A stretch of 64,000 bases of DNA from Alphaproteobacteria bacterium (GCA_965214705.1 CBDCCI010000002.1:384001-448000), one strand, 5' to 3'; shown: positions 3,888 through 45,751, counted from the stretch's first letter. The notes: generated by a model from the sequence alone, not told the origin. Numbers and translations are program-made.

Positions 3888-4487
3888 TCAAACACCAATC
3901 TTCACAAAGAAAGCTCCGCGTTCGACAGTCTGCATACACGATGCATTCCCCGCTCCTGTCGCAAACATTCGGTCTGCGACAATGGAGACTCCACACCTTC
4001 ACCGGCTAGCGGTCTCAGAAAACATTCTCCTATCATTGTGACTGGAGAGTGCAGCTTAGAGGGGTCATGGTCGATTTACGTAATGCGTATTGCACGAATG
4101 TGTGGTCGCCAGTTGCAGGAAACCTGTCCATCGCCCAGCGCCGCATCGTCCCCGCCGAAACAGTTACTGTTCAGTTGTACAACAGCAAGATATGGCGTGG
4201 CTGCCATGCTTCACCGATCCACTCTTTGGCTACGACTGCAGCTGCTACCGCGGGCCGGATAAATTGGTTCGGAGGCGGCGCGGCGGCGCACACTTGCGAT
4301 TGTTAACTGCTCGGTTAACTGGGACACGCTATCGGCAACCCGATGCCGCTTTAGCCTCACGAAACCTCCCACCTTCTTATCAAGCACCACGCTGATGTGC
4401 TTGCTGGCTCTTGAACCGGCCGAACCAAGGTCAATCCTGTGGTCACGGAATTGGCTTGTCAACGGCATTTTCGATGTTGGGCTCGTC

Positions 4488-8997: not shown

Positions 8998-9202
8998 GGC
9001 GCTTGCCCACCGCCTGACCACACTCGCCGATCTCGCGCCCACCGCTCCACAGCTTCAACAGCAATGAGGATATTGCTGAGGATCAAAAGAAGAGCCGCGG
9101 ACAGCGCCCTTTCCGCATTCAGCCAACATCCCCGGAAATCCGTCGTCGGATCAGTGTGACCAAAAAGCCCGGCCTTCTATCGACTTAAACTGCGAAACAA
9201 CA
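8998..9202 (-). mobile_element. Orphan end of the TGTTGTTT transposon family seen at 38037-42589
   Basis: Homologous to 42386-42589; terminus TGTTGTTTCGCA (minus strand) matches the 38037 end over 12 bp. Confidence 0.8.
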
Positions 9203-36466: not shown

Positions 36467-36670
36467 ATGAGGGAGAATGCCGGCGGACGGCGCCAGCGCG
36501 CGGTCATGGCGACCGATGCGGAGTGGGAACGAATCGGCCGGGCGGCTGCGGCGAGCGGCATGGACCTGTCGCGCTTCGTGATCCATCGCGCGCTGGACCG
36601 GGACCCTCTGCCGCCGGAGGTCCTGCGCCGGGCGGTACGCGAGATGCTGGTGCTGTCCATGCTGGAGATC
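36467..36670 (+). pseudogene. Ribbon-helix-helix mobilisation accessory protein (MobC/TrwA-like) fragment
   Basis: VMATDAEWERIGRAAAASGMDLSRFVIHRAL. Confidence 0.55.
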
Positions 36671-37392
36671 CTCTCGAGGGCGACTCGGAGACCGGCGCTA
36701 CGGTGCCGTTCTCGCCAAACCTGAGTAGGAGACACGATATGCCCCCCAAGAACGAGACCGCGACGCCGGCCGAGGCGGAGGGGAGCGAAGAACAGGCGGC
36801 GGTGAAAATCGCAGCGCTCACCCGGCTGAAGTCGATCGGCGAGAACGAAGCGACGGTGCTCGTCCACGAAATCTTCTACCGCCGCTTCCGCAACCGCCGT
36901 GAGCTCGCGAGCTGGGTCGGCCTGACGCCGACCCCCTGGGCGAGCGGCGACACGCAGCGCGACCGGGGGATTGACCGCGACGGTCCGGCATGGATCCGGG
37001 CACAACTCATCCAAATGGCGTGGCGTTGGCTGCGCTATCAGCCCGAGAGCCCTCTCAGCGCGTGGTTCGAGGAGCGCACTGCGGGCTCTCGGGGACGGAT
37101 GCGCAAGGTGATGGTGGCGCTCGCCCGCAAGCTGCTGATCGCGCTCTGGCGGTTCGCCGAGACCGGTCTCGTCCCGACGGGCGCCAAGCTCGTCTGATCG
37201 CGAGACCGCGCTGATCCAGACTGGCCGGACGCGGCCAGCGCTGGGCCGGGTGGCGAGTGGCCGAGCCTCTCACGGGCTGAAACACGCCGAGCAGGAGATG
37301 GGCCCCGCCTCCGGAACGCTGCGCCCGCAGCAAGCGGGATCGAGGGATGGTTCCGGCGCACCGCCGTTGAAAGAGAAACCTCCCGGATAAGA
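36670..37392 (+). mobile_element. IS110-family remnant C: transposase C-terminus (stop 37197) plus partial 3' non-coding end
   Basis: FRNRRELASWVGLTPTPWASG, ALARKLLIALWR; 3' scaffold shared with 45790-45970. Confidence 0.8.
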
Positions 37393-38376
37393 GTTGGGTA
37401 CGGGTGCCGAGCGTGGAGGAGGAGGACCGCAAGCGGTTGCTCCGTGAGCGTCGGCGGCTGGTGAAGGAGCGGACGTCGCTGACGAACTCGATCAAGGGGC
37501 TACTCAAGCTGCAGGGGGTCTTCGACTTGGATCCTCGGGCCAAGGAGTTCGAGGAGAAGTTCGCGGACGCGGTGACCGCATACGGCTCACTGTTCCCGCC
37601 GCGGGCGCGTCAGGAGATTCTGCGGCTTGTGGAGCGGCTGTCGCTCGTGCAGCGGCAGATCACGGCAGTCGAGGCCGAGCGGGATGCGGTTGTCCGCCAG
37701 GGCGCCGCTATCCCGGCGCCGGTCGCGCCGCAGCGAAGCGAGGAGCGGGCGGCGGCCAGGATCGCGACGTTGGCCCAGCTGAAGGGGATCGGCGCGAACG
37801 ACGCGATGCTGCTTGAGCACGAGATCTTCTACCGCGACTTCGGAAACCGCCGTGAGCTTGCGAGCTGGGTCGGGTTGACGCCGACCCCATGGTCGAGCGG
37901 GGACATGCAACGCGACCAGGGGATCGACCGCGACGGTCCGGCCTGGATCCGTGCCCTCCTCGTCCAAATGGCGTGGCGCTGGTTGCGCCATCAACCCGAC
38001 AGCGCGCTTAGCAAGTGGTTCGATGAGCGCACCGCCTGTTGTTTCGCACGTTATTTGACGCCGAATCTCCCAGATTATTTGACGTGATCGCTGCCCTGAT
38101 TTCCCAGATTGCTCGGTCTTTTCCGGATCGAAGCGTAGGAGCTCATGGTCTCTGCGGGCGGTCCGGGGTCGCTGTCTGATTGAGGTTTGGACTGGTGCTT
38201 GAGGAGGGCTGACGAGGTGTCGCGCGGCCGTCCACACGACGAAGTGCTGCCATGGCCTGAAGCAAGCTTCCGGCCACGGACTGGCCGCTCACTTGACGTA
38301 GTATCCCGGTGGAGGCGCAGCGCCTTCCGGACCGTTGGGGAGGGGTGGTTCCCGACGGCGGTTCCGGCTCGAACCC

Positions 38377-39414
38377 CTAGGCGTTGGCGGAACCGGGCTC
38401 CGGGAACCGCGGGGCCTGCGGCCGACTGCTGCCGTTGGCGGCGGCGGCCGCCGCCCGCTTGTCCGCTGCGCCTGCGACGACGCTGTAGCCGCCCTCGGCG
38501 TTGCGCGCGACGCGACCCTCCTGGACGAGCTTTTGCAAGATTACGCCGACGGTCTTGTGCCGGGTCGCGGCGCGTTCCCGGATCTGGCGTTGCGAGAGCG
38601 GCGCCCCGGCGTCGGCGAGCGCCTTGAGAACGCGGCATTCGGGAGTTTCGGGCTGAGGCGGCCCGCCGGCCGGGGGCGGCTGGCGCAGCTGGAAGGAGGG
38701 CTCCTCTCCGTCTTCCTTGAGCTCGATCTCGATGTCGTCGAGACCGCGAGCGGCGCGATGCTCGACGGTCATGAGCGTCTGCCGGTCCCGGCGGCGCAGG
38801 TATAGATTCGAATCTCCCCAGGCGTGCAGCTCACTGCTGCCCCGCAGGGCCTGCCCCGGCCTCGTGGCCCCGCTCTTGCGGGCGTGATGGACGAGCAGCA
38901 CGGCGGTCTCGAAGCGGCGTTGCAGGTCGCGCAGGAAGCCGAGGATCGGGGCGACGTCTGCGACCGTGTTCTCGTCCACGCCGTGCAGGCGGACCAGGGG
39001 GTCGAGGACCACGAGGCGCGGTGCGATGCGCTCCACGGTCTGCTGCAGGCGGCGCCGGTCGTCGAGATGGTCGAGGCGCAGTGTGGGCACGTCGATAACG
39101 GCGATGTCGAGGGTCTCGAAGCGAGCGCCTGCGGCGCGGGCGATCCCCTGCAGGCGCTTGCGCACGAGGTGGCCGGCGTCTTCTGCGGCGAACATCAGGA
39201 CCGGACCGGGCCGGGCCGGGGCGAAGTGCCGCAGGCATGGAACGCCGGCGGCGACTGCGACCGCGAGGTCCAGCGCCAGGATGGACTTGCCGCACTTGGG
39301 CTCGCCGCCGACGATGCCGACGGCTTGCTCGCCCCACAGCGTGTCCACCAGCCATTGCTGCTCGCGCGGCCGCTCCTCCAGCTCGATCGGGGTGCGGGTC
39401 GGGAAGCCGGTCAT
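38377..39414 (-). CDS. RepA-like/AAA_25 ATPase-helicase with C-terminal HTH
   Basis: GGEPKCGKS, FAAED, VVLDPLVRLH, LVHHARK, LRGSSEL; PLSQRQIRE HTH. Confidence 0.8.
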   Translation of the reverse strand: MTGFPTRTPIELEERPREQQWLVDTLWGEQAVGIVGGEPKCGKSILALDLAVAVAAGVPCLRHFAPARPGPVLMFAAEDAGHLVRKRLQGIARAAGARFETLDIAVIDVPTLRLDHLDDRRRLQQTVERIAPRLVVLDPLVRLHGVDENTVADVAPILGFLRDLQRRFETAVLLVHHARKSGATRPGQALRGSSELHAWGDSNLYLRRRDRQTLMTVEHRAARGLDDIEIELKEDGEEPSFQLRQPPPAGGPPQPETPECRVLKALADAGAPLSQRQIRERAATRHKTVGVILQKLVQEGRVARNAEGGYSVVAGAADKRAAAAAANGSSRPQAPRFPEPGSANA

Positions 39415-40214
39415 GGCCGCAACTCCTCTAGCGCGTGCTGCAGGTGCTCGGCGCTGACGGTCCTCGCCTCGTCGAGGGCGGCGGCGGAGAGCGCGTAGTG
39501 GGCGATGCGGTTGATCTGGCGCGGCAGGCCGCGCGCGCTCTGGAACAGGGCCTCGACGGCGGGCTCCTCGAAGAGCGGCAGCTCGCATCCCGCGAGCCTG
39601 AGGCGGTGCTTGATGTAGGCGTCGACCTCATCTCGGTCGAGGCCGGTGAGATGATGGCGGACGACGAGGCGCTGGCTGAGGGATTCGTGCATCGCCATGG
39701 CGAGACGCCGCCTGAGCTCGGTCAGGCCGACGAGGACGAGGCACAGGCGCTGCTCCGAATCCATGGCGAAGTTGGTGAGCAGGCGCAGGTCCTCGAGCAC
39801 GTCGTTGCGCAGGTGATGGGCCTCGTCGATGACGAGGACCGGCAGCTGCTTGGCCTCGGTGACGAGGCGGGAGATCTCGTTGCGGATTGCCTGATGGGCC
39901 GAGGCGCGCGAGCGCTCGATGGGCAGGCCGAGCTCCCACGCGATCGATTTGTACATGTCGAGCACGTTGCCCGTGGTCAGCGAGACGTAGTGGACCCGGT
40001 AGAGGCCAGGGTGGAGCTGCGCCGTCAGGTGCCGGCAGGCGGTGGTCTTGCCGGAGCCCACCTCGCCGGTGAGCAGGCCGATACCGCGCAGCTCGATGAG
40101 GTGGCCGAGCCTGGCCTCGGCCTCGCGGCGCGCGTTGGACTCGAACAGCTCGTCGGTCTCTGTCGGGGTCTCGAAGGGCAGGCGGGTGAAAGCGAAGTGG
40201 CGCTGGTACATCAC
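39411..40214 (-). CDS. ExeA-family AAA ATPase (transposition helper)
   Basis: HFAFTRLPF, TGEVGSGKT, VIDEAH, LVLVG, GLPRQIN. Confidence 0.88.
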   Translation of the reverse strand: MMYQRHFAFTRLPFETPTETDELFESNARREAEARLGHLIELRGIGLLTGEVGSGKTTACRHLTAQLHPGLYRVHYVSLTTGNVLDMYKSIAWELGLPIERSRASAHQAIRNEISRLVTEAKQLPVLVIDEAHHLRNDVLEDLRLLTNFAMDSEQRLCLVLVGLTELRRRLAMAMHESLSQRLVVRHHLTGLDRDEVDAYIKHRLRLAGCELPLFEEPAVEALFQSARGLPRQINRIAHYALSAAALDEARTVSAEHLQHALEELRP

Positions 40215-41539
40215 TCGTCCTCCTTCTTGTCCTTGAGCTTGTGCATGGCCAGCGGCGAGGGCGGGGGCTCGGGCGCCGGGTCCTCGGCCTCGATCTCCCT
40301 GGCCGGATAGGTGCGCCTGACGGCGGTGTTGGCGTAGGCGTCGAGAGGGGTAGCCTTGCCGGCCGGCTTGCCGTCATGGACCACGTCGAGAGGGCGCGAG
40401 GGCGGCGCGGCCGGGTCGTAGCGCAGGGTGATCTTCTCGCCGACCAGCACGGTATCGACCTCGTAGACGCAGCCGTCGAGACTGACGGTGCGATCCTTGT
40501 AGACACGGCGCTTGGCCTCGAAGAGGAACAGATCGTCGAGGTCCATGGTGGCGTCGGGATAGCGCACGCCGGCCGAGGCCAGCGCCCACTGCTCGAGCGG
40601 GGTGCGCCCCTCGTCGAGGCCACGATGCGGGCTGTTGTGATACTCCCCCTCGATCCAGGCCCAGAGGCTGCGGTTGAGCGCCTCCAGGCTGTCGACGTCA
40701 TCGCCGAGGTGGCGAAGCCAGCCGGCCCGAAGGGTGCGGAAGAAGCGCTCGATCTTACCCTTTCCCGCTGGCTGGAACGCTCTTGCGTGAATCAACGCAA
40801 CGCCGAGCCTGGCGCAGACCAGGGAGAGATGACGGGAGCGGTAGGCGCTTCCGTTGTCGACGTACAAGCGGGCCGGGAGGCCGCGCCGGATCAGCGCGTC
40901 CTTGAACACCGGCAGGAACGCCGCAGTGTTCTCCGCCATGGCGAAGGCGGCGAACGGGATGACGCGGGTGGCGTCGTCGATGAAGGCGATCAGGTAGGTC
41001 TTGCGCCGGCTGCGGCCGTGCCGGACCTTGGGTCCGTGCATGACGTCGCTCATCCACATCTCGCCGGCATGCCGGAAGGCGAAGCGGCGGCGATCCGCCC
41101 CGTCGGGCGGCTTCTTGTCGAACAGGCCCTCGCGGCTGAAGAGGCGGTGCACGGTGGACGAGGCGAGCGGGTGGTCGATACCCTCCTCGTGAGCCTTCTG
41201 GATGATGGCGCGGACCGACAATGCGTCGTTCTCGGTCTTCAGCGCGATGAGGCGCTCGGCGACCTCGGGCGGCAGCCGCCGGGGCTTCCCCCGGTCGGTA
41301 CGGGGCTTGGGGTAGAGCGCGTCGAAGCCGCCGTAGCGGTAGTCCTTGATCCAGCGCCGCATGGTCTCGGCGGCGACCCGGGTCCTGGTGGTTCCGGGGA
41401 TTGTGTAGGTCTTCTCGGCTTTGGCGCGCATCATCGCGCCGGCACCCGGTGCACCCACGGGCAGATGTACCAGATCGGCGATGACGTCGTATCGGAAGAG
41501 CGCGATCTGTTGGCGAAGGTCGTCGTCTGAGCTGTTCAT
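40211..41539 (-). CDS. Mu/IS481-like DDE transposase
   Basis: WMSDVMHG, FIDDATR, YVDNGSAY, GKIERFF, Mu-type C-terminus. Confidence 0.9.
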   Translation of the reverse strand: MNSSDDDLRQQIALFRYDVIADLVHLPVGAPGAGAMMRAKAEKTYTIPGTTRTRVAAETMRRWIKDYRYGGFDALYPKPRTDRGKPRRLPPEVAERLIALKTENDALSVRAIIQKAHEEGIDHPLASSTVHRLFSREGLFDKKPPDGADRRRFAFRHAGEMWMSDVMHGPKVRHGRSRRKTYLIAFIDDATRVIPFAAFAMAENTAAFLPVFKDALIRRGLPARLYVDNGSAYRSRHLSLVCARLGVALIHARAFQPAGKGKIERFFRTLRAGWLRHLGDDVDSLEALNRSLWAWIEGEYHNSPHRGLDEGRTPLEQWALASAGVRYPDATMDLDDLFLFEAKRRVYKDRTVSLDGCVYEVDTVLVGEKITLRYDPAAPPSRPLDVVHDGKPAGKATPLDAYANTAVRRTYPAREIEAEDPAPEPPPSPLAMHKLKDKKEDE

Positions 41540-41584
41540 GGTGCGATCCTCGTTCAGGGACTCCCTGGCCCCGGGATCGTCACG

Positions 41585-42220
41585 CTACGAACTCTCCGGC
41601 GGCGGGTCCGGCCCCGCCCGTTGTTGGAACTGCGGTTTGCGATTCCCCACGTCGATGCCGTGGGGTTGGAAGCCCAAAGGCGCGGGCAGCGTCTGGAGCT
41701 GCCCGGCGACCAGGCCGCGCAGTTCCATCAACGCGCTGTCGCTCTTCAGACGCTCGCGCACCGCGCTCATGGTGGGCGCGCAGCCCGCGAGCAGGTCGGG
41801 GATCAGGCCGATGACGCGCACAAGCGCGTTGTGCACGAGCTTCAGCCTGCGGCGGATCCAACGCACGGCGCCGGGAAGCTCGATGGCGTCCTCGTCCTCG
41901 GGGCAGCGCACCTCGTCCGCTGCCTCCTCCAGGCTGCCGGCCTCCTCCGCCACGACAACAACCGCTTCCAGCGCATCGAGCGTGCCCGGCAGCCGCGCCG
42001 CCAGACAGTCGGCCAGCAGGCCGATGGTCGTATGGCTCTCACGGCAATACCAGCGAGGAACCCTTGCGCCGGGCGGGGTCTTCCGCTCGTAGGTGCCGTG
42101 GCTTGCCACAGAACATCCGCCGTGCGGGTGATTCGGGCAGCGCTCAAGCCTTGCGTCGCGCCACGCCTCGGTCTTAACGTATTCCTCGCTGGTGAGCCCC
42201 GTTTCGTAGCGAAGCTGCAC
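41585..42220 (-). CDS. Cys/His (DUF6431-like) accessory protein
   Basis: CPNH..GC...HGTYER...RWYC...HTT; first gene of the transposon operon. Confidence 0.6.
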   Translation of the reverse strand: MQLRYETGLTSEEYVKTEAWRDARLERCPNHPHGGCSVASHGTYERKTPPGARVPRWYCRESHTTIGLLADCLAARLPGTLDALEAVVVVAEEAGSLEEAADEVRCPEDEDAIELPGAVRWIRRRLKLVHNALVRVIGLIPDLLAGCAPTMSAVRERLKSDSALMELRGLVAGQLQTLPAPLGFQPHGIDVGNRKPQFQQRAGPDPPPESS

Positions 42221-42309
42221 CGGCCCTGGCCCGGCGGGAGTTGAGTCCCCCGGGCCTCTCTTTGCGGTTCAGTGAGAGGCCGAGATTACGGACGCTCCCC
42301 GGCGCCGCC

Positions 42310-42443
42310 AAGCTGTGGAGCCGTGGACGCGTCCTGCGGACCGATCGGCGTCCTGCGGACCGTGTGGACAGCCCTTGGACAAGCTGGCGCTTGCCCACCG
42401 CCTGACCACACTCGCCGATCTCGCGCCCACCGCTCCACAGCTT
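42310..42443. other. Nested multi-stem palindrome in the transposon leader (candidate ncRNA or cis element)
   Basis: Outer stem AAGCTGTGGAGC/GCTCCACAGCTT (20/22 extended); inner GATCGGCG/CGCCGATC and GGACAAGC/GCTTGCCC. Confidence 0.6.
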
Positions 42444-44494
42444 CAACAGCAATGAGGATTCTGCTGACGATCAAAAAAATGCCGCAGGCAGCGTCCTTCC
42501 CGCACTCGGCCACCATCCCGGGAAATCCACCAACCAATCAAAGTGAGAAAAAAACCCGTGCTTCTATCCGGCTAGACCGGAAAACAACACCGCCGGAGCC
42601 CGGGGACGCATTCGTCGAGTGATGATCGTGGCAGTCGCCCGCAAGCTGCTCATCGCGCTGTGGCGGTTCTCCGAGACCGGTCTCGTGCCGACGGGCGCTA
42701 GGCTCGCCTGACGCCGGGACCGCAACTCTCTAGCCCGGCCGGACGCGGCCGACGCTGGGCCGGGTGGCGAGTGGCCGAACTTCACCAGGGCTGAAATACG
42801 CCGAGTCGTAGATGGGCCCCGCCTCCGGAACGCTGCAGCCCGCAGCAAACGGGATTGAGGGACGGGTCCGGTGCATCGCCACCGGTCACCGCCCGGATAA
42901 AAGGTGGGTGTGCGCTCAAGCGCGACCGATAGCGAGCGTTCCGACCTGGCAACGCGCTGATCCGGTCAACCACGAGGGAGGAATGGCATGCAGTGAAGCT
43001 CCGCTTCCATCCCCATCTGCACGTGGTCGTCCCCAACGCGGGCTTCGACGTCGCGAACGGCGAGTGGAAGACCGGGAGCGGCACCTTCCTTGCCCCCGTC
43101 AAGGTCCTCGCCAGCCTGTTCCGCCGCCGCTTCCTCGAAGACCTCGCCCGCGCCCATGGGCGGGGGGAGCTGGAGTTCCACGGCACCGTCGCCCATCTCG
43201 CCAACCCCGGCGAGTTCCACGCCGCCCTCGCCGCCGCCCGCGGCAGGGACTGGGTAGTCTACGCCAAGCGGCCCTTCCGCGGGCCGGCCCAGGTGTTCCG
43301 ATACCTCGCCCGCTACACCCACCGGATCGCCATCGGTGACAGCCGCATCACAGGCTTCGATGGCGAGACCGTCTCCTTCCGGCACCGGAAGCCGAAGCAG
43401 GCGGGGCAGAAGAAGCCGCGCTACGGCACCATGACTGTCAGCGCCGACGAGTTCATCCGCCGCTTCCTGCTCCATGTCCTTCCCGACGGGATGCACCGCA
43501 TCCGTCACTTCGGCATCCTCTCCAACGGATGCCGGACCACGACGTTGGCCAGCGCGCGCGAGGCTTTCGGCTCTATCGGCTGCCCCGACGATGAGTGTGT
43601 GGACGACGATGCGCCCGAAGGCCAACGTGAGCGTGACGAAGCAGCGGAGCCCGCGGCCGCTCCCGTCGCCTGTCCCGATTGCGGAGCGCCGCTGCGCCTC
43701 GCCCAGTCTCACCAATGTAGCCGGTGAATCTCACCCGAAGTAGCCGGCGAATCTCATCCAAAGTAGCCACCCGATCTCAGCAAAGTAGCCACCCCGGAGC
43801 GAAGCGACGCGGTTACGTTTTTGTGGGCGGTTCTCCCTCCGCGATTTCTCCGTGATCGGTACCACCGCCGAAGGCCCGGTGGCAAGGCGGTGGAGCATGG
43901 TGCGCGCGCGGCGCGTGAGACCCCTCACGCGTCTGGCGGCGCGCGCGCGCCATGCCTGGCACCATCCGTCCCGCCCCTCCGACGCCCCGGAGCGGAGCGA
44001 CGATCACGCCGCGCGCAGCGCGGCGCTCTGTAGTCGCGTTCATGCCTTTTTCCCTGCGGCAGCGTCGTCGATACGCATGGACGTGCCGTGCAGCTCGATG
44101 CGGATGGCACCATGGACGAGGCGGTCGAGGATGGCGTCGGCGACCGTGGGATCGTTGAGCTGGCGGTGCCAATCGGCCACCGGCAACTGGCTGGTGACGA
44201 TCACCGAGCGCCGGCCGAAGCGGTCGTCGAGGATTTCGAGGAGATCGCGCGCGCGAGCCGCATCGATGGGCGCGATGCCCCAGTCGTCGAGGATCAGCAC
44301 CTCGATGCGGGCGAGGTCGCGGTAGAGCTTCGGGATCGTGCCCTCGCCATGGGCGATGCGCAGCTCGGTGAGCAGCCTGGGCACGCGGTGGTACTGGGCG
44401 ATGTGGCCCTCGAGGCACGCCTTGTGGCCAAGGGCACAGGAGATCCAGATACCATGAGCACGGTGGCATCGAATCGCGTCTGGCAGTTAGAGAA

Positions 44495-44554: not shown

Positions 44555-45751
44555 ATGTCGGATGGTCCAGACACGACCGCGCTGACAGGCGCAAGTAGTA
44601 GCACGATTTATGTCGCGGTGGAGATCAGCCTCAAATCGTGGATTGTGGGCGTGCATTGCCCGGATGCCTCGGGTGGCAGCATCAGCATCCACACACTGGC
44701 TGCTGCCGACACGGCGGGACTGTTGGATCTCGTCGGGTCGGTGCGGGAACGGGTGGCGAGGGAGCTCGGCGCCCGTCCTCGGGTGATGCTGACCTACGAG
44801 GCGGGCTACGAGGGGTTCTGGCTGGCCCGCGATATCGAGCGCCGTGACGCGGAGATCGATATCTTCATGAACGATCCGGCGAGCCTGCGGGTGAACCGGC
44901 GCGCCAAGAAGAAAAAGACCGACCGCATCGACGCGAGGAGAATGGTTCGGGCTCTGAAGGCATGGGACCAAGGCGATTCGGAGGCCATGTCCTGGGTGCG
45001 CGTGCCCGACGTGGACCGGGAGGACGCCAAGCGCCTGCTGCGCGAGAGGGACACGCTGATCAGCGAGCGTACCCGCGTCAACAACCGGATCAAAGGGCTC
45101 TTGCAGTTGCACGGCATCTTCGATCTGGCGCCGCGCAAGCCGGACTTCCTCGAACGCCTCGCGGCCGCGCGGACGGGCTATGGGGCGCCGTTGCCGCCGC
45201 GGGCGCGTGCGGAGATCGAGAGGGCGGTGCGGATGCTTCGCCTGGTTGAGGACCATATCGAGATGATCGAGGCCGAGAAGAAGGCCCTGCTGAAGGCTGG
45301 CCGGAAAACCCAGGACGCGACCGACGGTGACGGGACGGCGATGATCGCGGCGCTTACGCGCATCCACGGCATCGGCCTCAATGACGCCACACTGCTGGCT
45401 GGCGAGGTGTTCTATCGGGACTTCCGCAATCGCCGGGAGTTGGGCAGCTGGGCCGGGTTGACGTCGGTGCCGTGGGCGAGCGGAGATGTCGACCACGATC
45501 TTGGCATCAGCAAGGCCGGCCCCTCGCATGTCAGGAAGCACATGATCCAGATGGCCTGGCGCTGGTTGAAACTGCAACCGGAAAGCGCGATCACGAAGTG
45601 GTTCCATGCCTACGTCGCCAGGGATGCCGGTGGCGGGAGGGACCGGCGAGCGAGGAAGCGGGCGATCGTGGGGGTCGCGCGCAAGCTGCTGATCGCGCTG
45701 TGGCGCTATGCCACCCAGGGACTGGTGCCCGAGGGCGCCATCGTCTCCTGA
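44555..45751 (+). CDS. IS110-family recombinase/transposase
   Basis: VAVEIS, YEAG, KTDRIDA, WASG...GISKAG, VARKLLIALWR. Confidence 0.93.
   Translation: MSDGPDTTALTGASSSTIYVAVEISLKSWIVGVHCPDASGGSISIHTLAAADTAGLLDLVGSVRERVARELGARPRVMLTYEAGYEGFWLARDIERRDAEIDIFMNDPASLRVNRRAKKKKTDRIDARRMVRALKAWDQGDSEAMSWVRVPDVDREDAKRLLRERDTLISERTRVNNRIKGLLQLHGIFDLAPRKPDFLERLAAARTGYGAPLPPRARAEIERAVRMLRLVEDHIEMIEAEKKALLKAGRKTQDATDGDGTAMIAALTRIHGIGLNDATLLAGEVFYRDFRNRRELGSWAGLTSVPWASGDVDHDLGISKAGPSHVRKHMIQMAWRWLKLQPESAITKWFHAYVARDAGGGRDRRARKRAIVGVARKLLIALWRYATQGLVPEGAIVS

Follow-up and report, generated by a model that had tools for sequence, protein, structure and literature searches.

A four-gene DDE transposon related to Tn6049 and the interchangeable modules in its fourth position

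Anatomy of the element

The subject of this text is a transposon located in a 64,000-nucleotide stretch of DNA from an alphaproteobacterium (GCA_965214705.1 CBDCCI010000002.1:384001-448000), and in particular the gene that occupies its fourth position. The whole stretch is called the window, and positions are counted from its first letter unless another contig is named. The element is 4,553 bp long, lies at 38037-42589 and carries all of its genes on the minus strand. By direct reading, its ends form a perfect 8-bp terminal inverted repeat, with TGTTGTTT at 38037-38044 and AAACAACA at 42582-42589, and the duplication CCGCC flanks it at 38032-38036 and 42590-42594. It is a precisely bounded, intact transposon.

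Four co-oriented minus-strand open reading frames (ORFs) are listed for the element. In order, they encode a small protein with conserved cysteine and histidine residues (the Cys/His protein), a DDE transposase, an ATPase of the AAA_22 type and an ATPase of the AAA_25 type. There are 45 nucleotides between the first two genes, and the later junctions are overlaps. Within GTGATG at 40214-40209, the transposase stop codon TGA lies inside the start of the AAA_22 ATPase gene, and at ATGA (39414-39411) the stop codon of that gene overlaps the start of the AAA_25 gene. An earlier note, made from the sequence of the window, had described an 8-bp inverted repeat, a 5-bp CCGCC duplication and four co-oriented genes with overlapping stop and start codons, and this anatomy is borne out by our reading and by the Pfam and NCBIfam labels. 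The features of the locus are as follows.

37404-38036, plus strand: 5' portion of the target, an IS110-family transposase gene split by the element (Transposase_20, 3.2e-14); aligns to a paralogue up to residue 187
38032-38036, no strand: target-site duplication, copy 1, CCGCC; identical to 42590-42594 and falling within codons ..acc gcc of the split IS110-family gene
38037-38110, minus strand: right (gene-distal) end, with terminal TGTTGTTT at 38037-38044 (plus strand) and subterminal repeats TCAAATAA (twice) and GGGA(A/G)AT (twice)
38111-38376, minus strand: non-coding tail of the helicase module; contains blocks that can form hairpins and that, by alignment, are conserved across the lineages with a helicase
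38377-39414, minus strand: AAA_25/RepA-like RecA-fold ATPase, 345 amino acids; RecA fold at about residues 11-200, C-terminal winged helix at about 258-312
39411-40214, minus strand: MuB/TniB/ExeA-like AAA+ ATPase (AAA_22), 267 amino acids
40211-41539, minus strand: DDE transposase with HTH_32, rve and Mu-transpos_C, 442 amino acids
41585-42220, minus strand: Cys/His protein, 211 amino acids
42221-42589, minus strand: leader and left (gene-proximal) end, with terminal AAACAACA at 42582-42589 (plus strand) and a GGATTTCCC site about 62-72 nucleotides inward
42590-42594, no strand: target-site duplication, copy 2, CCGCC
42592-42711, plus strand: 3' remainder of the split IS110-family transposase gene; 82% identical to the paralogue, with which it aligns from residue 187 on

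The two halves of the interrupted gene meet at residue 187 of an intact paralogue, which is located at 36523-37197. One contig from a DNA run (X4) passes straight from position 38029 to position 42588 and omits the 4,558 bases in between, which corresponds to the element plus one copy of the duplication. This contig differs from the window in 20 letters, and thus it represents an uninterrupted paralogue and not the same locus.

The layout of the right end recurs in sister copies within the same genome (class B, below) and at related loci, and its subterminal repeats are likely to be transposase-binding sites. The leader upstream of the Cys/His gene contains a 22-nucleotide inverted repeat (42310-42331 and 42422-42443, 91% complementary and 90 nucleotides apart), which could be an operator or a terminator-like element. 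An Rfam search of positions 37000-43500 returned no family at E <= 1.

The core genes and their relatives

The DDE transposase has Pfam matches to HTH_32, rve and Mu-transpos_C, the last with 24.8 bits against a cut-off of 21.7. It misses the NCBIfam cut-off for transpos_IS481 (200.8 bits versus 224), and the element has four genes rather than the single gene of such an insertion sequence. Additional matches are to TnsB of ShCAST, a CRISPR-associated Tn7-like element (7svw, 6.5e-7), to phrog_310 (4.7e-48) and to TnsB in PADLOC (3.7e-8). The adjoining ATPase matches Pfam AAA_22 at 5e-27, falls just short of TniB (21.5 bits, cut-off 22.4) and scores 169.8 bits, again under the cut-off, with the ExeA-like family TIGR03015. 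It also matches MuB of phage Mu (8xvb, 8e-5), the 'DNA transposition protein' phrog_296 (4e-30) and TnsC in PADLOC (1.2e-4). These TnsB and MuB matches, together with the TG...CA tips and a duplication that is mostly of 5 bp, uphold the proposal of the earlier note that this is a complete transposon of the Mu/Tn7/Tn552-type lineage in which a DDE transposase is paired with an AAA+ partner.

The element shares a Mu-transposase C domain and an AAA+ partner with Mu (MuA/MuB), Tn7-like elements (TnsB/TnsC) and Tn5053-like elements (TniA/TniB). Its ends also resemble those of Mu and Tn7-like elements in their TG...CA tips, 5-bp duplication and asymmetric arrangement with inner repeats. It differs from all of these groups in its smaller transposase (442 amino acids), its upstream Zn protein and its loose target. 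Neither TnsA, TniQ nor a resolvase was found in the element.

The Cys/His protein matches no Pfam or NCBIfam family, even at an E value of 10. Eight of the 42 members of its family match PF20020 (DUF6431) weakly, with 2.8e-4 as the best value, and the window protein itself does not. In BLASTP against two DUF6431 proteins, only a short Cys/His motif aligns (E 0.033). The protein, which is of Zn type and similar in appearance to DNA-binding proteins, is a remote relative of DUF6431, and by the curated cut-off it is not a member. Its AlphaFold model has a predicted local distance difference test (pLDDT) score of 90 and shows an N-terminal beta domain, in which C28, C36, H41 and C59 are conserved in the family alignment, followed by a helical domain resembling a helix-turn-helix (HTH). 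A Foldseek search of this model against the PDB found nothing at E <= 0.001, and a wide VIA-align search gave only generic HTH-like matches to residues 79-173 (best Z 4.4), so that no fold is assigned. PADLOC has no defence family for this protein.

There is no TniQ match in Pfam for any of the four element proteins, and no TniQ or TnsD chain was listed in the fold searches of the Cys/His model, which gave nothing convincing for any fold. Moreover, the Cys/His gene lies upstream of the transposase gene in every member, Tn6049 included, which is not the position of tniQ. Given no TniQ or other Pfam match, a remote relation to DUF6431 and no convincing fold match, the TniQ-like selector that the earlier note had suggested for this protein is not sustained.

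The element belongs to a large group of Mu/Tn552-like DDE transposons that is uncharacterised, and the only named relative that we found is Tn6049 of Cupriavidus metallidurans CH34. Tn6049 is described as 3.5 kb long and present in 12 copies in CH34, with its ATPase named 'gspA' (PMC2864759). On pHS87a it is reported with 12-bp ends that begin with TG, TGTGCaTaAGCA, and a 4-bp repeat (PMC4739549), and elsewhere its module is said to be one that 'could not be categorized' (PMC6210171). The mechanism of Tn6049 is not studied in passages on this element from PMC2864759, PMC4739549 and PMC6210171.

The copy of Tn6049 on pMOL30 encodes, in order, a 181-residue protein, a 479-residue IS481-like DDE transposase, a 277-residue AAA_22 ATPase and a 71-residue ORF. 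It is thus like the window element in having a small upstream protein, an IS481-like DDE transposase and an AAA_22 ATPase, and the start of its ATPase gene likewise overlaps the transposase stop codon (pMOL30 3938-3941). The two transposases are 26% identical over 446 amino acids (BLASTP, E 4e-26) and both have rve and HTH_32 domains, and the ATPases are 29% identical (E 1.1e-13). The upstream proteins occupy the same position without detectable similarity (hhalign probability 0.2), and neither has a Pfam family. Both elements have TG tips and a short duplication and occur in multiple copies, but the window element has TGTTGTTT rather than TGTGCaTaAGCA ends, is 4.55 kb rather than 3.5 kb long and mostly makes duplications of 5 bp rather than 4 bp. 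Unlike the window element, Tn6049 has no helicase; its fourth ORF has an acidic tail and ends in ...GDLADNDF. A small ORF that follows the ATPase gene in a Cupriavidus necator element likewise has an acidic tail and ends in ...ANELDLPF.

The closest annotated relatives that we found are plasmid elements of Cupriavidus necator, Streptomyces and Geobacillus in which a DUF6431 protein, a DDE transposase and an AAA ATPase are encoded in the same three-gene order as in the window. Their transposases are 37-40% identical to that of the window over about 90% of the length, and their ATPases 34%. The DUF6431 proteins of these plasmids consist of a Zn-type domain and an HTH, whereas the Cys/His protein of the window is below Pfam detection. 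In contrast to the window element, none of them has an AAA_25 gene; their fourth genes or cargo are different. The transposase also has Staphylococcus plasmid matches (408 records), many of which are presumably Tn552.

No literature was found on DUF6431 in transposition, on AAA_25 in transposons or on this combination of genes. The statement in the earlier note that it knew of no characterised element with this set agrees with our search; the uncategorised Tn6049, the only named relative that we found, was not known to the note. Two single database proteins, P0124 (597 amino acids) and P0293 (638 amino acids), represent an AAA_22-AAA_25 fusion and a Cys/His-DDE fusion; these may be genuine fusions, or may stem from frameshifts or faulty gene calls where the genes are coupled.

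The fourth position

The AAA_25 protein (Pfam AAA_25, 4.6e-37) has a weak match to a MarR-type winged helix (MarR_2, 2.3e-5). Residues 32-196, the RecA-fold core, match RepA of RSF1010 (1g8y) at 9.3e-10, and there are further matches to the helicase domains of phage primase-helicases in PHROG. Across 32 homologues (70-92% identity) there is no variation in the Walker A, Walker B, HHARK and RGSS motifs, and the protein resembles RSF1010 RepA in its Walker A, AED, Walker B, HHA.K and RGSS motifs. It differs from RepA in its extra C-terminal winged helix and in belonging to a DDE transposon rather than to a plasmid replicon; a tblastn search against plasmids gave no match. These likenesses suggest a hexameric-helicase-type ATPase of the RepA/DnaB type (superfamily 4, SF4), which we call the helicase for brevity. 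Pairwise ratios of nonsynonymous to synonymous substitution (dN/dS) are 0.21-0.33 for the helicase and, in the same pairs, 0.25-0.37 for the transposase and 0.16-0.37 for the AAA_22 ATPase. Judged by these ratios, purifying selection acts as strongly on the helicase as on the transposase, and the helicase appears to be functional.

About 230 nucleotides located directly 3' of the helicase stop codon are strongly conserved between lineages whose genes are only about 80% identical, and they include hairpin-capable blocks. Within the source genome, a blastn search located this tail in elements of this kind and their remnants and nowhere else. A structured RNA was considered for this tail and rejected because the covariation term among six sequences is positive; the tail is kept as conserved DNA.

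One possibility is that the helicase, winged helix and tail constitute a small replicon, comparable to the pri-rep-ori modules of P4 alpha and SaPI. Such an initiator-helicase with its origin might amplify an excised circle, or might replicate in situ, independently of the transposition chemistry. The fusion of a winged helix to a RepA-like core, the hairpin-capable non-coding DNA directly downstream of the gene and the pairing of helicase with primase in one distant element (G050, below) would all be consistent with this architecture. However, every copy found is integrated, with duplications at 40 of the 49 loci that have both ends, and no circular junction or free form was seen in the contigs. 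Furthermore, part of the tail is lost in the window copy, and the protein of about 70 amino acids that replaces the helicase in other elements is adaptor-like and cannot itself be an initiator. We consider the replicon explanation improbable.

There are six full copies of the element in the 7.9-Mb source assembly, which was searched by tblastn and blastn, and the five besides the window copy bring the number of classes to three. Class A is the window copy alone, which is single in the genome. Class B comprises three copies of 4,394 bp that are 99.95% alike, 81% identical to class A and equipped with all four genes. Class C comprises two copies, one of 3,852 bp and one of 3,677 bp, with 86% identity to class A; in these the first three genes are present and the AAA_25 gene is missing. 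The TGTTGTTT start and the AAACAACA end are common to all six copies; four are flanked by exact 5-bp duplications, one by a shifted 4-bp match and one by none.

A locus scan covering one genome per species returned 78 loci, with an AAA_25 match at 35 and none at 43. When identical copies were collapsed, 26 distinct lineages were left, including those of the source genome. Half of these (13) have the AAA_25 gene, which is intact in 10, contains one internal stop in two (L042 and L043) and is cut by a contig end in one. The other 13, including multi-copy lineages, lack it. The trio of Cys/His, DDE and AAA_22 genes is constant in 67 of the 84 copies that were inspected, and the other 17 are truncated or interrupted.

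In a maximum-likelihood tree of the concatenated trio, all rows with AAA_25 fall in one clade of 15 (support 100/99). This clade also holds the two helicase-less class C copies of the source genome, which are nested with L035 and L042 (100/100), and a minimum of two changes is required to account for where the helicase occurs on the tree. The tree of AAA_25 itself is weakly resolved but agrees with that of the core. Lineages outside the clade are without a helicase, and some of these have 8 and 5 identical copies. The helicase-less multi-copy lineages are evidently active.

Thus the helicase is not the core gene that the earlier note had inferred it to be, but one of several interchangeable modules in the fourth position: 13 of 26 lineages do without it, multi-copy ones among them, and a small ORF with clamp-like and SSB-like motifs is found at the same place. 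The synteny search that had been proposed as a check confirmed the trio as a unit and found the helicase in only 13 of the 26 lineages. The original form of the proposal, an obligatory four-gene transposon with the helicase in its core and the Cys/His protein as a TniQ-like selector, can point to the co-linearity of the four genes at 35 of the 78 loci and to the conservation of the helicase within its clade. The helicase-less lineages contradict it, as does a Cys/His protein that is without a TniQ match and always upstream of the transposase, and we regard it as scarcely tenable.

Helicase-less elements contain an ORF of 68-73 amino acids within the 330-500 nucleotides that follow the ATPase gene. 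This small ORF and the helicase gene both begin at the ATPase stop codon. A tblastn search with four query ORFs matched 11 of the 13 helicase-less lineages and none of the 13 helicase lineages; of the two without a match, one stops 32 nucleotides past the ATPase gene at a contig end, and in the other the ORF was not found. The 11 include L056/L072, in which there is only a degenerate N-terminal part. The window copy lacks the small ORF and has the AAA_25 gene in its place, and sister copies in the source genome have the ORF.

There are 36 members of the small-ORF family in the protein collection. The C-terminal sequence QL(S/A/P)LFPELD(I/V/T/A/N/H)PF is nearly invariant among 22 close members, and the linker that precedes it is variable. 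The consensus for binding the beta clamp is given as Q-L-S-L-F/L, often located on flexible C-termini (PMC3971601). The conserved C-terminal tip of SSB (the protein that binds single-stranded DNA), DDDIPF, is described as a dock for genome-maintenance proteins (PMC5872125), with PriA as one docking partner (PMC5531588). The C-terminus of the small protein therefore resembles a putative beta-clamp motif combined with an SSB-tail-like docking tip.

Apart from the window's own genome, only 10 of 400 sampled genomes of the phylum have an AAA_25 match at E <= 1e-15. The best three relatives (45% identity, in genomes of another family) are located directly after genes for a DDE transposase (32%) and an AAA_22 ATPase (31%). 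One of the three, L111 (G050:C26, 116-5077, minus strand), encodes a Cys/His protein of 251 amino acids, a DDE transposase of 485, an AAA_22 ATPase of 271, an AAA_25 protein of 360 and, downstream of this helicase, a DnaG-type primase of 380 with Zn_ribbon_DnaG and Toprim_2 domains. Because the helicase follows a transposase and an ATPase in these distant relatives also, it is tied to such transposons in two branches that are far apart.

These observations bear on whether the helicase is merely a passenger, for example a host-beneficial, defence or anti-defence gene that was acquired once and is unrelated to movement. Such cargo would be dispensable, and indeed helicase-less elements are active and the helicase has an internal stop in two single-copy relatives, L042 and L043. 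However, the gene has the exact coupled start of the gene that it replaces, selection on it equals that on the transposase, and PADLOC has no defence family that matches it. In addition, its near relatives (the three best among the 400 sampled genomes) adjoin transposase and ATPase genes, and it recurs in a distant branch. A cargo role is very unlikely in our judgement.

The fourth gene, translationally coupled to the AAA+ gene that precedes it, occupies the place of tniQ, tnsD or tnsE, and this raises the possibility of a target selector. Perhaps the small protein links the MuB-like ATPase to clamps left on replicating DNA, and the helicase recognises forked or single-stranded DNA, such that insertion is directed into replicating or conjugating DNA. 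TnsE is described as steering Tn7 to replication structures (PMC12153342), and the clamp as being bound by many transposases (PMC3971601), which would be in line with the clamp motif in the small ORF. The absence of a strict target sequence, with only CCNGG-like duplications at 32 sites, is also compatible with this idea. However, the primase beside the helicase in the distant branch is a better fit to DNA synthesis than to the choice of a site, and an SSB-tail-like tip would point to restart and replisome partners. We regard target selection by the fourth module as unlikely, although less so than the alternatives above.

The reading that we prefer, and for which we consider the case evenly balanced, is that the module in the fourth position provides replication functions, or recruits them, for copy-type transposition. 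All fourth modules would then serve one step, in which the replisome is brought to the strand-transfer or copy-out intermediate. The small protein might bridge the transposition complex to the host clamp and to partners of the SSB tail, and the helicase, together with a primase in one branch, might stand in for host loading steps. The winged helix and the conserved tail could provide the site at which the helicase is loaded. The element would thereby be copied, and not merely moved. A link between the helicase and replicative transposition, or the targeting of replication structures, is made more plausible by the existence of the alternative modules.

A bolder version of the copy-type reading, which we offer only tentatively, is that Tn6049-like elements organise their own replication. 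The swappable module would either mimic replisome-docking peptides or encode parts of a primosome that loads at the conserved tail, and a Mu-like intermediate could be copied without the restart proteins of the host.

Several points weigh against the copy-type reading. It is drawn from the comparison of sequences across the family, and no resolvase gene, cointegrate or circle junction was seen in the material available, which was contigs and not raw reads. The tree of the trio is rooted at its midpoint only, and so gain versus loss of the helicase is argued from outgroup-like relatives and is unproven. The motifs of the small ORF are short, and in L056-L064 and L072, from one gammaproteobacterial metagenome-assembled genome (MAG), the QLxLF...PF end is lost in at least eight identical copies, and yet this lineage has spread. 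The window tail (38212-38376) lacks 65 nucleotides that are kept by its 98%-identical, 19-copy relatives (L015:10848-11252), and the window copy, being single as well as short of these nucleotides, may be impaired. For the tail, RNAalifold with six sequences predicts 64 pairs, 6 of them with compensatory change, and gives a covariation term of +0.92, which lends the structure no statistical support. Structure prediction, another check proposed in the earlier note, yielded a good model for the Cys/His protein (pLDDT 90, no fold match) but a poor one for the AAA_25 protein (pLDDT 56, from a 32-row alignment). A complex prediction for the AAA_22 ATPase with the AAA_25 protein scored 0.00, which is uninformative either way.

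Three replication-related modules are found at one coupled position, namely an adaptor with clamp and SSB motifs, a helicase, and a helicase with a primase. They offer a directly testable handle on the old question of how DDE transposons of the Mu/Tn7 type pass their intermediates to the replisome. The family is widespread and multi-copy in many genomes, and its sole named member that we found is called uncategorised (PMC6210171). Self-organised replication, if true, would be a new coupling of transposition to replication in a very widespread family. Such elements also drive rearrangements of symbiont genomes, and inversion with reciprocal flanks was observed here. Compact AAA+-guided DDE systems are of interest as insertion tools.

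Spread, insertion sites and surroundings

There are 1,301 homologues of the Cys/His protein in a large protein collection, forming 965 clusters at 50% identity, and all are unnamed or labelled 'hypothetical'. The genomes of the 78 loci are labelled as Alpha- and Gammaproteobacteria, Chloroflexota, Actinomycetota, Acidobacteriota, Gemmatimonadota, Spirochaetia and a cyanobacterium, representing at least seven phyla. Copies per genome reach about 20. Multi-copy spread is illustrated by one genome in which 19 loci have an identical core protein set, a second genome with 7 such loci and a helicase-less lineage with 8.

Both ends could be located at 49 loci. Elements with AAA_25 (26 loci) are 4.39-4.62 kb long and those without it (23 loci) are 3.41-3.62 kb long. 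Duplications of 4-7 bp flank 40 of the 49, with lengths of 5 bp at 28 loci, 4 bp at 5, 6 bp at 5 and 7 bp at 2, and there is none at 9. The 6- and 7-bp cases are about as numerous as expected from chance extension of 5-bp duplications. Among 32 unique sites, the duplication approximates CCNGG (C in 16, C in 19, any nucleotide, G in 21 and G in 20 of 32) without a wider consensus. The survey of insertion sites proposed in the earlier note therefore gives a dominant 5-bp duplication and a loose CCNGG-like preference, but no strict target sequence.

Two loci, L025 and L029, are inverted copies on one contig of one MAG, about 27-42 kb apart. They lack duplications and have swapped flanks, cgggg/ccctc and ccctc/cgggg, and these reciprocal flanks indicate an inversion between the two copies. 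Either homologous recombination or intramolecular replicative transposition could have produced it.

Core proteins 60-97% identical to those of the window occur in genomes labelled as other phyla, namely L043 (Dehalococcoidia), L044 (Acidimicrobiales), L055 (Acidobacteria), L070 (Gemmatimonadetes) and L073 (Aphanocapsa feldmannii). This sharing could reflect transfer across phyla within one habitat, or mobile contigs that were mis-binned. The sequencing runs that contain the window stretch are sponge, coral and marine metagenomes. Among contigs from RNA libraries, X18 covers 28 of 30 bins at 90-99% likeness and X17 covers 12 of 30; these are contigs of relatives and the libraries may hold DNA, so no expression is inferred.

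The two class C copies of the source genome (G000 C1:453541-457392 and C1:473238-476914) are inverted with about 17 kb between them. An exact 5-bp duplication flanks just one of the two, and their leaders differ by an insertion of 175 bp. A solo, gene-free remnant of the gene-proximal end is located at window position 8998-9202 (G000 C3:392998-393202) and is 83% identical to the first 204 nucleotides of the element. Further fragments of ends and of the helicase (C3:519 kb, C3:560 kb and C1:2511 kb) are present in the source genome. The helicase-like pieces found at G000 C3:3027407 and C3:374560 represent C-terminal remnants amid other mobile debris and are uninformative.

The window element is embedded in a patch of mobile DNA (36523-37197, 37404-38036 with 42592-42711, 42993-43727, 44040-44384 and 44555-45751). 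This patch holds three IS110-family transposase genes or pieces, a Y2_Tnp (IS91-like) fragment and an IstB fragment.

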